This document shows positions 1-63,000 of a stretch of 64,000 nt of DNA, piece after piece. The DNA is taken from NCBI RefSeq assembly GCF_006345805.1, contig NC_043010.1, positions 20,832,001-20,896,000 on the forward strand. The letters are read 5' to 3'. Position 1 is the stretch's first letter. Each line of letters opens with the position of its first letter. The position numbers were made by a program. Source of the DNA: Octopus sinensis. Taxonomy: Eukaryota.

Positions 1-3000
1 ATGGTAAAACCATTGAATATTTCCGAATATTTAGTCTTTGAAAGTTGTCAAAATAAATAAATACACACACACACACACACACACACACACACACAGACAC
101 GCACACATGCAGATTACTACACTTAAGGTAGTAAGCTGAAATTAATTAGCTGTTGTAACTTAGAGGAATTAGTAATTTGCGTTAATTAAAATTCTTATTA
201 GGGTTATAATTTCGATGAGTTAAAAAGTAGTTTCCGCTCACTTAATCATGTATGATAACTAGTATACTTAACTGTATGTTACTCATGCAGAAGACCCACG
301 TGGGGAACTTTTTTTGCAGTGTCATTTCAACAAATAACAAATTATTACACTGAACGTGGGTGCTTATATGTGGTCACTCGATCGACTAGAAATAGCAGAC
401 AACTCTTCCTCAAATTATACCTTATTGCTAGAAGAATCAATGATTGGTTGGTGTTCTTTGAAATGCCTTTGGTAATAAATCTTCTCAGTAAGTGTTTAAT
501 GTTTAAACTATGGTTTTCTTGAGACAGATATCACTCCTCAACAAGAATGTTCTTCTATTTAGATGTCCGTTTCTTAAACTCAACGAGATCTCATCTGAGA
601 ATATCAGGGCTCAAACGACGCATTCAAGTTAGGACTATCCCAACAGTTTTTCTCAATTTAATATCAAAATATTCAATACAGTTTGAATTTTGTATATTTT
701 GGGGGGGCATCAGGCGATGAGAATGTGATTAAAGGGAGATTTGGTCGGTCTTTTATTGTCGTTTTCGTTGCTTAATTCAACTAGGCCCTGAATTAACAAA
801 CCTATGATCAAATAAATTTCAACCATCCTATATTTTAAGACGCATGTCTAAAACTACAGTATTCAGGGTGTCCTTTCCTTCTCTGAGCCAGTAAGGTTAT
901 AACAACACAAAACCCTGACTTCAAAATAAGAAGTTCAAGGAAATTCCCCCTGAAATATGATATAGACTTTTATTATTCATCGCCAGTAATAATCTCCCTA
1001 ATGGTGTGGTAAAAATTGGTTGAATATCTTGTTTCATGGTTTATTACATGTTTAATGGTTTTATTTTTGTACACATATGTTGCCTTCCAAATGGTTTCTA
1101 ATATTTTCATTGGCGCTACTGTCTACGATAAATGACTTTTGTTCATTATTAAAGATTATTACATATTTTAATTGCTTCTTTTTGTTTTGTTTCTGTTGAC
1201 AGATTTATTCCACGGTAACAATTACGTTTATTATACTTTCCGTAATATCTTTCATCGTAGTTACTCATCCTTGCTGCCGAATACAAGGCGATCGGGATTT
1301 TTTTGGAATGGTACACTTAAACGAAACGAGGGAGCAGGAATTTACCTCCATGCCTCATCCTGCGTTTATTGTAATTGATTTAGTTTGTCTCGCATTCTTT
1401 ACATGCGATTTGGCAATCAAATACTTCAGTTATCCAAACAGGAAGCTTTTCTTCATAAATGTATTGAATCTTGTGGATATTGCTTCGGTCTTACCTGATT
1501 TTATCGCTATTTTTATTAGCACTACACTGGATGTAGAAAAGGCCAATGAAGTAATGCACTACGTCAATATTTTAGGGTTATTTCGTTCCCTCAGGATTTT
1601 CCGATTGGCACGTTACGTCCCAGGATTGTGGATTTTGTTCTACACATTCAAAGCCAGTATCTGGGATTTGTTGTTGATGAACGGCTTTATGATGGTCGGT
1701 ATGATTGTATTTGCGACTTTAATTTATCATGCAGAAGATGATAATTTCAACAATATTCCTATTAGTCTGTGGTGGGCGCTGGTCACTATGACTACAGTTG
1801 GTTATGGAGATATGTTCCCATCAAATTTCTTTGGCTATATAGTTGGTTCCCTTTGCGCTATCACCGGCGTGTTAATGGTTGCTTTCACTGTTCCGATTAT
1901 TGTCAATAATTTCCTCATGTATTACACGTATTACATACACATTCAATCCAAACAAGAACTAAAGAGACGTCGGGAAAAACATAAGAAAAACGTTGAAAAA
2001 ACTGAAGAAGATAGCAAGGTTGGGGAAAGTGAAGAAGATGGTAACGTTGAGAAAAATAAAGAAGATGACAACGTTGAGAAAAAGGAAGAAGATGGCAACG
2101 TTGAGAAAAAAGAAGGAGGATGATAAACGAAAAATTGGATGGGTCAACGAAAGAAGCAAGATGAGAGTAGTCACCGATTCTTCAAGAGATACATGTACAG
2201 TTACAGTGAGTACAGCCGCAGAACGTTTAAATCAATACGCGCGAAGTTAACTTTCTAATCCTCCATTGTCAAACATCGATAGTCGCAAGCGATTGCATTT
2301 GGGTATGGCTAGAAGTTTAACGTCGGGCATTACTAACAAACAAACGAAAAATGGACAGTATCAGTTAAGAGATCCTTTTAAGCATCAGTTCAGAGACCCT
2401 AAATTTCAGCATTCTGCAAACATTATTGAGATATTTTAGACGTTGCCGTCCATTTTAAGGGTGAGAATTCACATTTCGCCTCTGAACAAGATATAAATAC
2501 TATGAAAGCATTCGCATTATAAGACATTATTATTACCATTATTATAATTACTGGGGTAGGTCAAACTAGTGCAAACCGTAGAATGCCGGACGAATCGCTT
2601 TCCTTAATTAACTTCTTGCACTGAAATCCCGGTAAGATCGTATTTAATTTGGTCTCTCTTGGGTCGATGATTTCATTAGCTACAATTAACTGGAGTCGAT
2701 TCTTATAAACTACATCACATTCAATCACACAAAAGTAAGCATCAGATATGATGGCAGTAGTGATGATGATGTTGATGACGATAATAATAAAAATAACACT
2801 TTAATTTAATCACCAAGTCTAATATGCCAAAGAAAAGGGGCTAGTCGAATATATACACCGTAACACGTGACCAGTAGCTTATTAAAAGCAAAGTTGACCT
2901 GGGTAGGGTTTGAATTCCCTACTTAAAGGGGCCCCGAAAAAATGCTTTAAAATACTTTTTACCCACCACTATAATCCTATGTAAGAGGAATTCATTCAAT

Positions 3001-60000: not shown

Positions 60001-63000
60001 CAGTGTAGTAAGCTCGACTCCGGAGTGAGTGATTGGTCAGAGACGCTAATGGACGTTAGTAGCTAACTCGACGGTTTGCCGCGACCCTTAGTGGGGGCCA
60101 CAAGAAAGATTTGTAATAGCAATTGACATGTGAGAGTTAGTGAATGGCTGCTCGGGGGACAAATTGCCTGGTTTGGATCGCCTGATCTATGCATCTTAGG
60201 ATTGTAAACAAGCTTTATCAAAAGAAAAGTAATCGCTTCCTTGGCGTTACTGAGAGATTTATCAACCTGTGATATCTAATTGAGGTAAGACGGTTTACAT
60301 GCCTAAGTTTAAATAATTTAGTGATGGGTTCAGCCTGGATCTCTAACAACATATCCACTGCTAAATGTGCTACTCAATAACTACAACTTATATAAATATA
60401 GCTAACAGGGTGTATCGCACGAAAGCATGCTACGCTTTGAATAATACTCGTGTATGGGTTATAGCAGAGCTGCAATAACTAATATTGAAGGATGTTGGGA
60501 TGACGGGACAAGCAAATAGGAAACGGCGATATCCATGCTGCGTAGTGGGTCGTTAATAACGTAAACAGAAACGAACTTCAAGTTTAATTATTCTCAGGCA
60601 GAAGATCTGGTCTGAACATCTGCAATATGGTGAAAAACCCATAAAGGCATAACAAGGGGCCAGCACTTTTCTAGTCATACCTCACCAGAAATACAACAGT
60701 CTTACCATAAGCTCTTCAGCACAATTTCTGTGTAATCATTTCCACTTGAAAAGGCAAAGGTCGGTCGAAGACTGAGGTGAAAACCACTTGCCCAGATTTT
60801 TGTATGGTTTCTGTTTGTACACATACGTTGCCTTCCAAAGGGTTTCTTTTTTCTTTGGTGTCATTGTCTGCAATAAATGATTTTTGTTTAATATTAATGA
60901 TTGTAACAAATTTTAATTGCTTCTTTTTGTTTTATTTCTATTGACAGGTTTATGGCATGGCGGCAGTTGTGTTTGTTATACTGTCCGTATTGTCTTTCAT
61001 CGTAGCTACTCATCCAGCTTGCCGAGTTCAAAGGAATCATGGTTTTTGGAAACGATTACACAGTAACAACACGGAACTCTGGGATATGTACCCCATTGCA
61101 CCTCATCCAGCATTGATTATAATCGATTTTATTTGTCTAGCATTCTTCTCATGTGACTTGTTCTTCAGGTTCATCACTTGTCCAGAATGGAAAAATTTCG
61201 CGAAGAATTCACTCAACTATGTCGACTTCGTTGCGATTCTTCCTGATTATATCGACATTATTGTTGTCTACACAGTTGAGGCAAATGTTGCATTGGAAAC
61301 CATGCACTACGTGAATCTTTTAAGGATCTTTCGTGCCCTCAGGATTTTCCGCTTGGTCCGTTATGTTCCAGGCTTGTGGATCATGCTGTACACATTCAAA
61401 GCCAGTTTCTGGGACTTGTTGTTGATGATTTGTTTTATGAATGTCGGTATGATTATGTTTGCCACTTTCATCTATTACGCCGAGGAGGAAAATTTCCACC
61501 ATATTCTCATTGGTATGTGGTGGGCACTGATCACTATGACTACGGTTGGTTATGGAGATATGATTCCAACGAGTAGCGTAGGAAAACTTATTGGTTCTGT
61601 TTGTGCTATTGCTGGTGTGTTAATGGTCGGTTTCACTGTTCCTATAATCGTCAATCATTTCTCCATGTACTACAAACACATGCAATCCATGCAAGCAGCA
61701 CGAAAACGCGACGAAAGAGCCAAGAAAGAAATGGATAGGGTTACAAAATTGACACAAGAGTAAAATGAACAGAAGTTCCTTATCCGAACGAAGCGAAAAA
61801 AGAACCCCAAAATTCTTCGAAACCCCAAAATAGAGTTACAGTGAGTGTAACACAAGAAAGCTCAAATCAATATGGACAAACTTCTCTTTCAAATCCGCCA
61901 CCTCCTTCCTTTGAAGGTTTATCAAACACCAAAAGTGACCGGCGATTGCGTTCTGGTATGACTAGAAGCGTAACGTCCGGTAATTACGATTACCAAACGG
62001 TAAATGGATTAGGAGAAACTAAAATGTAGTACTCTGCAAAGATTATTGGGATATTTTAGATGTTACAGACCAGAGTTCACATTTCACCTCTGGACAAGAT
62101 ATAAATGCCATAAAAGTATTCTCATTATAAGACATTATTACTACCATTATTCTAAAGGCGGCGAGCTGGCAGAAACGTTAGCACGCCGGGCGAAATGCTT
62201 ACCAATATTTCGTCTGCCGCTACGTCCTGAGTTCAAATTCCGCCGAGGTCGACTTTGCCTCGGCGTCGATTAAATAAGTACCAGTTACGCACTGGGGTCG
62301 ATGTAATCGACTCAATCCGTTTGTCTGTCCTTGTTTGTCCTCTCTGTGTTTAGCCCCTTGTGGGTAGTAAAGAAATAGGTATTTCGCTCAACGCTACGTT
62401 CTGTGTCCAAATTTCGCCGTGCTCGACTTTGACTTTAATCCTTTCGGGGTCGATAAAATAACTTCTAGTTGAGCAGTTGGGTCGATGTAATTTACTCATC
62501 TCCAAACTGCCCTTGTGTCAAAATTTTGAAATAATTATTACCATTATTATAGTTAATGCGGTGTGTGAAGCCAGTGAAAACCGTACAATGATGGACTAAA
62601 AGCATCATTAACTTCCGTCATTGAAATCCTGTTCAGATAGGATTTTGGTTTGTCTAGGGTCGATATTTTTTAGCTGCAATCAGCTGGAGTCGACTCTTAA
62701 TCACTATATAACTTCACGCCATCTTTGAAAGAAGGCACCGGTTGTAATGGTGTGACGATGATGATTGGAATAATAATAGTTCTTTCTACTATAGGTACGA
62801 GGCCTGAAATTTGGGAGGTGGACAGTCGATTACCTCGACTCCAGTACGCAACTGGTACCTATTTTTATCGATCCCGAAAGGATGAAAAGCTAGTTCGACG
62901 CTGGCAGAATATAATGATACTACTACTACTACTACTACTACTACTACTACTACTACTACTACTACTACTACTACTACTAATAATAATAATAATAAATAAT

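Follow-up and report, generated by a model that had tools for sequence, protein, structure and literature searches.

Diversity among voltage-gated potassium (Kv) channels normally comes from separate genes, with the T1 domain deciding which subunits co-assemble, and splicing changes N-termini, tails or single segments; lobster Shaker, for example, has alternative pore exons. Vertebrate Kv3 (KCNC) and Kv2/KvS genes place T1 in exon 1 and the channel core in a large exon 2, with alternative 3′ exons for the C-tail, and an intron just before transmembrane segment S1 is the usual position in Kv2/Kv3-type genes, two points for which our literature search gave no confirmation. We analysed a window of 64,000 nucleotides from Octopus sinensis (NCBI RefSeq assembly GCF_006345805.1, contig NC_043010.1, positions 20,832,001 to 20,896,000 of the forward strand), in which four exons (A to D), each encoding a Kv core from S1 to S6, follow one another on the same strand. 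Judged from genomic sequence, the window most likely carries the second exon of one Shaker-superfamily Kv gene in a row of four or more paralogous copies, none of them with a T1 exon of its own.

The T1 domain has the BTB fold. Gene conversion acts among the variable exons of the clustered protocadherin and UGT1 loci. Drosophila mod(mdg4) is reported to produce more than 30 isoforms by joining common exons to alternative 3′ variable exons (PMC13490949). Tandem exon duplication substitutions, mutually exclusive exons duplicated in tandem in ion channels, are likewise a known class (PMC9741552). In the limited literature searched, neither a Kv gene whose whole core is encoded by alternative exons nor a cephalopod Kv exon array was found described.

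Four core exons and their splice acceptors

The window contains no N and has a G+C content of 31–43% (per 2-kb window). Four open stop-to-stop frames lie on its forward strand, at 1200–2123 (A), 19039–20217 (B), 45388–46473 (C) and 60945–61763 (D), and each holds one core exon:

1203–2123, forward strand: core exon A, S1–S6, tail of 27-nucleotide repeats (1989–2115), TGA stop
19042–20217, forward strand: core exon B, S1–S6, longest tail, ending in ETSML, TAA stop
45391–46473, forward strand: core exon C, S1–S6, tail ending in FETKM, TAG stop
60948–61763, forward strand: core exon D, S1–S6, TAA stop soon after S6

The stop codons occupy 2121–2123, 20215–20217, 46471–46473 and 61761–61763, and successive exons are spaced 17,839, 26,349 and 15,557 bases from start to start. 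A tblastn search of the window returned exactly four core copies, and all four matched Pfam Ion_trans (E-values of 2e-30 to 5e-33) and Ion_trans_2, each exon being searched singly and no spliced model built. The original prediction of four same-strand core exons 15–26 kb apart is thus borne out by the open frames, the Pfam matches and tblastn.

Compared with solved chains, copy B aligned with the Kv1.2/2.1 chimera (7.6e-49), Kv3.1 (2.3e-48) and Kv2.1 (1.5e-47), with Shaker at about 2e-40 and Kv4 at about 4e-39, and with KCNQ at merely 1e-13. Its alignment to solved Kv chains begins two residues before S1 and runs past S6. The nearest ESM Atlas clusters are KCNC2/KCNC3 (Kv3) fragments, with a score of 0.96. 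Assignment of the cores to a subfamily was dropped: the PDB scores for Kv1, Kv2 and Kv3 lie within 5 bits of each other, and the Atlas leans towards Kv3. On homology, the four exons are classed as Shaker-superfamily (Kv1–4-type) cores, no single subfamily standing out.

The selectivity filter TMTTVGYGD and the acidic positions in S2 and S3 are invariant in all four copies. S4 has its basic residues at every third position, with five arginines in B and D, of which A is without the first and C without the last. Amino-acid identities from tblastn are 56% for A–B, 50% for A–C, 52% for A–D, 62% for B–C, 75% for B–D and 72% for C–D, making A the most diverged copy (50–56% identical to the other three).

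Alignment of the upstream regions places the heptamer TTGACAG, after a pyrimidine tract, as the acceptor of each of the four copies, and protein homology starts directly after its AG, two residues before S1. The TGA within the heptamer is in frame and closes the coding frame upstream. Since the frame cannot extend past this codon, the exons start in phase 0 at 1203, 19042, 45391 and 60948, in agreement with the predicted identical phase-0 acceptor just before S1 in every copy. The aligned flanks are as follows:

1062–1202, forward strand: intron flank and acceptor of unit A; A–B homology reaches further up, to 967
18901–19041, forward strand: intron flank and acceptor of unit B; A–B homology extends up to 18817
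45248–45390, forward strand: intron flank and acceptor of unit C, from the upstream alignment
60814–60947, forward strand: intron flank and acceptor of unit D, from the upstream alignment

Two other origins of the frames were discarded. Retrocopies were rejected, since every copy keeps intron sequence and an acceptor. A short coding exon within the conserved intron flank was also rejected: its sole frame ends at the acceptor TGA, and C and D are without its ATG.

Exon codon 4 is Met in B, C and D and ACG in A, where the first Met occurs only in the S1–S2 loop. Because A has no usable start before S1, it needs an upstream coding exon to be translated as a channel. This bears on the proposal that the copies are independent units without T1, each with its own promoter in a spacer and either translated from the Met at codon 4 or, in the manner of Drosophila mod(mdg4), trans-spliced to shared 5′ exons. 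Kv channels are able to assemble after deletion of T1, and B, C and D do have the Met at codon 4, but A does not, and a protein starting at S1 would be without the pre-S1 linker. The conserved acceptor implies splicing, not a transcription start, and no conservation between spacers above −140 to −235 offers a candidate promoter or first exon. To our knowledge, mod(mdg4)-like trans-splicing is not known in molluscs. We consider such independent units improbable.

Search for a T1 exon in the spacers

Translation of the forward strand from stop to stop gave 615 pieces of at least 30 amino acids; 47 with an entropy below 3.2 bits (microsatellite translations) were dropped, and the remaining 568 were scanned against Pfam in four batches at E-values up to 0.1. 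On the reverse strand, 418 pieces of at least 40 amino acids were obtained, 41 were dropped and 377 were scanned at E-values up to 0.05. No BTB_2 (T1) match is among the matches listed for the 568 forward-strand frames, in a search made without a positive control and missing exons of fewer than 30 codons. One forward-strand list is complete, at 12 families; the others give the best 25 of 33, 29 and 44 families, their weakest listed E-values being 0.051, 0.089 and 0.023, and in those three batches a BTB_2 match weaker than these values could escape. The same scan recovered Ion_trans one time in every batch and RVT_1 in two of them. None of the 377 reverse-strand frames matched BTB_2, with lists complete at 19, 12 and 12 families.

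Two further searches gave the same picture. A six-frame scan of the window with T1 motifs found no T1 motif pair; one NVGG occurs at 58675, and its frame was Pfam-scanned without a match. Forward-against-forward tblastx of the window with itself turned up pieces of reverse transcriptase in the spacers and no other block of paralogous coding sequence there. At the sensitivity used, an N-terminal T1 (BTB_2) domain is not encoded in the window, and to that extent the claim that the spacers hold no T1-type sequence is upheld by the BTB_2 scan, the motif scan and tblastx alike.

Tandem duplication of complete genes is the commonest route of Kv family expansion, and an array of complete Kv genes would have T1 exons hidden in the spacers, either as short pieces or diverged too far. 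The frames below 30 codons that went unscanned, the BTB_2 search without a positive control and the three forward-strand lists of the best 25 families would leave some room for them. However, no BTB_2 is among the matches listed in the 945 scanned frames, and no T1 motif pair was found. With cores 50–75% identical, equally old T1 exons ought to recognise one another across the spacers, and tblastx shows no such match. Homology between units also ends 140–235 bp upstream of the acceptor. Tandem duplication of whole genes would have left a T1 exon in each spacer and is excluded on that ground, at the sensitivity used; separate genes with T1 exons of their own were rejected with the same scope, the Pfam scans of both strands, the motif scan and tblastx being all negative. 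The chance that the window holds complete genes is, in our estimate, very small.

The spacers are 16.9, 25.2 and 14.5 kb long. Self-blastn delimits the duplicated unit as about 140 bp of intron (235 bp for A–B), the exon and 0.2–0.7 kb past the stop. Beyond this unit the spacers share nothing collinear except a weak A/C block 0.5–0.75 kb upstream. This block (433–681 and 44642–44902, forward strand) is 70% identical, lies before the A and C acceptors only and is collinear with the units. It carries no convincing coding signal and may be what is left of an older, more extensive duplication unit.

Constraint, gene conversion and other features of the window

Pairwise comparison of the cores over 238–243 codons gave synonymous divergences (dS) of 0.17–0.82 and ratios of nonsynonymous to synonymous divergence (ω) of 0.33–0.77. 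For tests on single branches, private single-base changes were assigned to A where B, C and D are identical, which includes the stem, and to B, C or D within the trio. The A branch carries 20 nonsynonymous and 18 synonymous changes (ω about 0.31, P = 0.0004) and the C branch 18 and 16 (ω about 0.31, P = 0.0009), whereas the B branch has 9 and 6 (P = 0.085) and the D branch 14 and 7 (ω about 0.55, P = 0.15). A and C have been under coding constraint since their divergence, B probably has been, and D gives no independent sign of constraint; overall, the constraint is no more than moderate. All three indels in the cores are of whole codons (one of 1 and one of 3 codons in A, one of 5 codons in B), whereas indels that break the frame occur in the tails and intron flanks. 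In neutral simulation, the chance that a copy stays free of stops was 0.5 at 3% change, 0.3 at 5%, 0.1 at 10% and 0.05 at 13%.

The copies exchange sequence by gene conversion, and this is ongoing. A run test by permutation over 323 variable sites identified an A–B conversion tract at 1078–1144 and a B–D run at 19310–19395 (p = 0.0002 each). Sliding identity showed B and D to be 95–100% identical over about 300 nucleotides (~19326–19625, S3–S5) compared with 73–85% elsewhere, and A and B to be 92–100% identical in the intron flank compared with 57–87% in the exon. C and D are 87–100% identical through tail and flank, and A and C 90–95% identical in the 3′ flank. Synonymous divergence between the B and C tails reaches 1.2, compared with 0.33 in their cores. 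With tail dS far above core dS and the spacers unalignable, the duplications are probably far older than core dS suggests, the cores having been partly homogenised. Taken together, the divergences suggest old duplicates whose cores have remained coding.

The intron flank of A is 97% identical to that of B over the last 138 aligned bases, although the proteins encoded by the two exons share only 56% identity. A selector or docking element conserved in the intron was considered as the cause and rejected. Identity in the flank is close to that at fourfold sites for B–C (82% vs 81%) and B–D (85% vs 88%), so that the B, C and D flanks are as diverged as fourfold sites, and the flank is the more conserved only where A is one of the two copies compared (p between 1e-3 and 2e-8). 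The A–C and A–D flank identities equal those of B–C and B–D exactly (113/138 and 115/135). One A–B conversion tract explains the excess and makes a selector-like element unnecessary. A search of the rest of the window showed no complementary partner of the flank element.

The C-tails have had more varied histories. Those of B and C are related (PPPS..SL...RLR.G.AR...NG) and end in ETSML and FETKM, respectively, each followed by a stop. In A the ancestral tail has been replaced by a 27-nucleotide tandem repeat (1989–2115, forward strand; 4.7 copies, 82% match) that encodes EDGNVEK-like nonamers and then a stop. D has a TAA stop and a 4-nucleotide gap relative to C soon after S6, and may be decaying. 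The features beyond the A and D stops, and the 3′ flanks, are:

2200–2355, forward strand: remnant of A's ancestral C-tail, out of frame and interrupted by a stop; 52% identical by tblastn to C tail residues 299–356
61769–62029, forward strand: tail of D resembling that of C, frameshifted and still open to ETKM and a stop; 81.6% amino-acid identity to C residues 277–362
2393–2723, forward strand: 3′ flank of A, homologous to the C and D flanks; 2399–2630 is 87.9% identical to 46463–46694
46474–46694, forward strand: 3′ flank of C, common to A and D
62030–62716, forward strand: 3′ flank of D, split by an insertion resembling a short interspersed nuclear element (SINE) at ~62157–62490

The description of each exon as S1–S6 with a C-tail, a stop and a related 3′ flank therefore stands for core, stop and flank, and fails for the tails of A and D. 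The last ~50 codons of B (20060–20214, forward strand) are open where A, C and D have non-coding 3′ flank, and A and C are 88–95% identical there. Either B would have kept an ancestral long tail, or the flank would have a conserved non-coding role.

Several points weigh against reading the array as a set of alternative exons. Pairwise ω values of 0.33–0.77 are high for a Kv core and equal the range expected if one member of each pair is neutral. The B and D branches show no significant constraint, their private changes being too few to test; disruption affects the tails of A and D, half of the set; and ω between the C and D tails is 0.89 over 85 codons. Gene conversion is able to keep unused copies open. 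An AATAAA or ATTAAA lies 0.24–0.66 kb after each stop, and is uninformative, such hexamers being frequent in DNA of 35–40% G+C. The search for BTB_2 was run without a positive control and would let T1 exons of fewer than 30 codons escape, and the sequence gives no evidence for a shared splicing-control element.

Much of this would be expected of relic partial duplicates, of which one or two would be spliced and the rest unexpressed and kept similar by conversion from a working copy. The two significant conversion tracts, the C–D and A–C patches of high identity, the raised pairwise ω, the stop and 4-nucleotide deletion in D, the degenerate ancestral tail of A and the C–D tail ω all favour this explanation, as does the simulated neutral copy, which stays open 30–50% of the time at 3–5% private divergence. 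Yet A is diverged across its whole core (55–88% identity per 60-nucleotide window), has a significant conversion tract only in its intron flank and still keeps 306 codons open, and at 10–13% neutral change only 5–11% of simulated copies were stop-free. Moreover, all core indels are in frame, the nonsynonymous deficit is significant on the A and C branches, and functional residues are invariant in all four copies. We regard relics of this kind as rather unlikely. The original prediction had taken the openness of all four cores as an argument against dead duplicates; they are indeed open, but for the reasons given here (conversion, high ω, the non-significant B and D branches, the behaviour of a neutral copy, and the damage to D and to the old tail of A) this carries less weight than was claimed.

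Under the preferred reading, of alternative exons sharing an upstream T1 part, the pre-mRNA would start upstream of the window. An upstream coding exon would give the start codon and the T1–S1 linker, and presumably also the T1 domain, and would be joined in phase 0 to one of the acceptors; the transcript would end downstream of the chosen core exon. The products would be subunits with one N-terminus that differ in voltage sensor, pore, gate and tail. Transcripts of C and A, if these copies are functional, must originate upstream of the window, and, as no T1 or shared exon lies between units, the pre-mRNA of a functional C must span A and B. All that could be tested within the window fits this shared-T1 model, which is partly supported and would place the T1 donor exon upstream of position 1. 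The shared upstream donor, its T1 content, the terminal position of the exons in the mRNA and the expression of more than one copy are parts of the model that we infer from the genomic sequence. That at least some copies would serve as alternative terminal exons spliced to one or more upstream coding exons outside the window appears to us an even proposition. A fuller proposal, in which one locus with one upstream T1 part, joined by cis-splicing or mod(mdg4)-like trans-splicing to any of at least four whole-core terminal exons, would supply a switchable set of modulatory subunits partly homogenised by conversion, is more tentative and falls somewhat short of that.

A modulatory role is suggested by the S6 gate, which reads TVPIIV in all four copies (e.g. 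19711–19728) in place of PIPIIV or PVPVIV: the first proline of the P-x-P motif has become Thr and the second is kept. Pisupati et al. (PMC6279357) name an altered gate as the universal signature by which regulatory Kv subunits are marked, evolving under relaxed selection, and atypical S6 gate substitution, their mark of such subunits, is present in all four copies. The TVPIIV gate suggests that the exons may encode regulatory-type (modulatory) Kv subunits, a lead that fits the raised ω.

The stretch of each exon reaching from the codons of GYGD as far as the S6 gate also matches the covariance model Rfam RF00485, K_chan_RES (the Kv RNA-editing hairpin), whose gathering score is 51 bits:

1797–1910, forward strand: K_chan_RES match in A, 70.9 bits
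19624–19737, forward strand: K_chan_RES match in B, 49.1 bits, just below the gathering score
45988–46101, forward strand: K_chan_RES match in C, 51.7 bits
61545–61658, forward strand: K_chan_RES match in D, 66.1 bits

TVPI-I-V includes the Ile codon that aligns with the known site of editing. Folding z-scores (+0.32, −0.50, +0.28 and −0.05) are no better than those of shuffled sequences, and the long-range pairing appears only in the minimum-energy fold of D. The match may reflect coding conservation of the filter-to-S6 region.

Of the spacer bases, 32% are repeated within the window or tandem (tandem 8%), a lower bound obtained without a transposon library. The spacers had been described as largely transposon and microsatellite; repeats are certainly present, and the share that can be demonstrated is this smaller, minimum figure. 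A SINE-like element of ~160–240 bp occurs in 28 places on both strands, at 71–97% identity to the query copy at 15919–16157, often beside (AAT)n-type microsatellites; this repeat and the microsatellite load are in keeping with octopus genomes. Other copies include 13293–13521, 17676–17911, 43803–44373 (reverse strand), 59052–59289 (reverse strand) and 62157–62490 (reverse strand). ARAGORN found no tRNA in the window. A retrotransposon without long terminal repeats lies at 31995–35080 (forward strand), with a 543-amino-acid frame matching RVT_1 (E-value 1.7e-28) and a zf-RVT-like frame; its more degraded relatives lie at 50326–54300 (forward strand), in the C–D spacer. An inverted piece of 543 bp at 10668–11210 (reverse strand) is 97.6% identical to 34740–35281, which indicates recent retrotransposon activity.

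Comparison with known systems

Regulatory, or 'silent', Kv subunits are defined by T1 self-incompatibility: they form no homotetramers and are obligate heteromers. The octopus cores share an atypical S6 gate with Kv5, Kv6, Kv8 and Kv9 and with the independently evolved cnidarian regulatory subunits, but the changes in the published cases are mainly at gate positions 3 and 6, whereas here position 1 is altered. In gene structure, the locus resembles the vertebrate Kv3 and Kv2/KvS genes in having an intron just before S1 and all of S1–S6 in one exon. In those genes only the short C-tail is alternative; in the octopus it is the whole core exon that has been multiplied, and the reading frame closes within every copy.

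Tandem exon duplication substitutions also involve tandem-duplicated paralogous exons that are alternatives for one slot in a protein. In the known cases, such exons lie close together, swap one internal segment and rejoin a common downstream exon. In the octopus array the units are 15–26 kb apart, would be terminal and would exchange the whole membrane core.

The original prediction likened the locus to an inverted clustered-protocadherin or UGT1 arrangement. This is acceptable in so far as both have a row of large paralogous variable exons and a constant part. In protocadherin and UGT1, however, the variable exons stand at the 5′ end with promoters of their own and the constant part is 3′, a polarity that would be reversed here, and common BTB exons with alternative 3′ exons, as in mod(mdg4), are nearer. 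By analogy of layout, the closest precedent is Drosophila mod(mdg4)/lola, rather than protocadherin. There, as proposed here, a constant N-terminus of BTB fold is combined with tandem alternative 3′ exons, each with a working part and a stop. The differences are that the insect products are transcription factors, their variable exons encode zinc fingers and mod(mdg4) trans-splices from independent promoters, whereas in the octopus what varies would be the complete core of an ion channel and the common exons would lie outside the window.

If the proposal is true, a constant T1 domain with a swapped whole S1–S6 core would make the specificity of assembly independent of gating and permeation. Cells could choose sensor, pore, gate and tail while the assembly domain stays constant, which would be a new route to heteromeric channel diversity. 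Even on a sober reading, the locus is a clear case of exon-level duplication with patchy conversion, and of conversion mimicking purifying selection. The layout of common BTB exons and alternative 3′ exons would, on the proposed reading, be extended from insect transcription factors to ion channels, and, if transcripts confirm it, the octopus locus would be akin to known alternative last exons and tandem exon duplication, in a new form.

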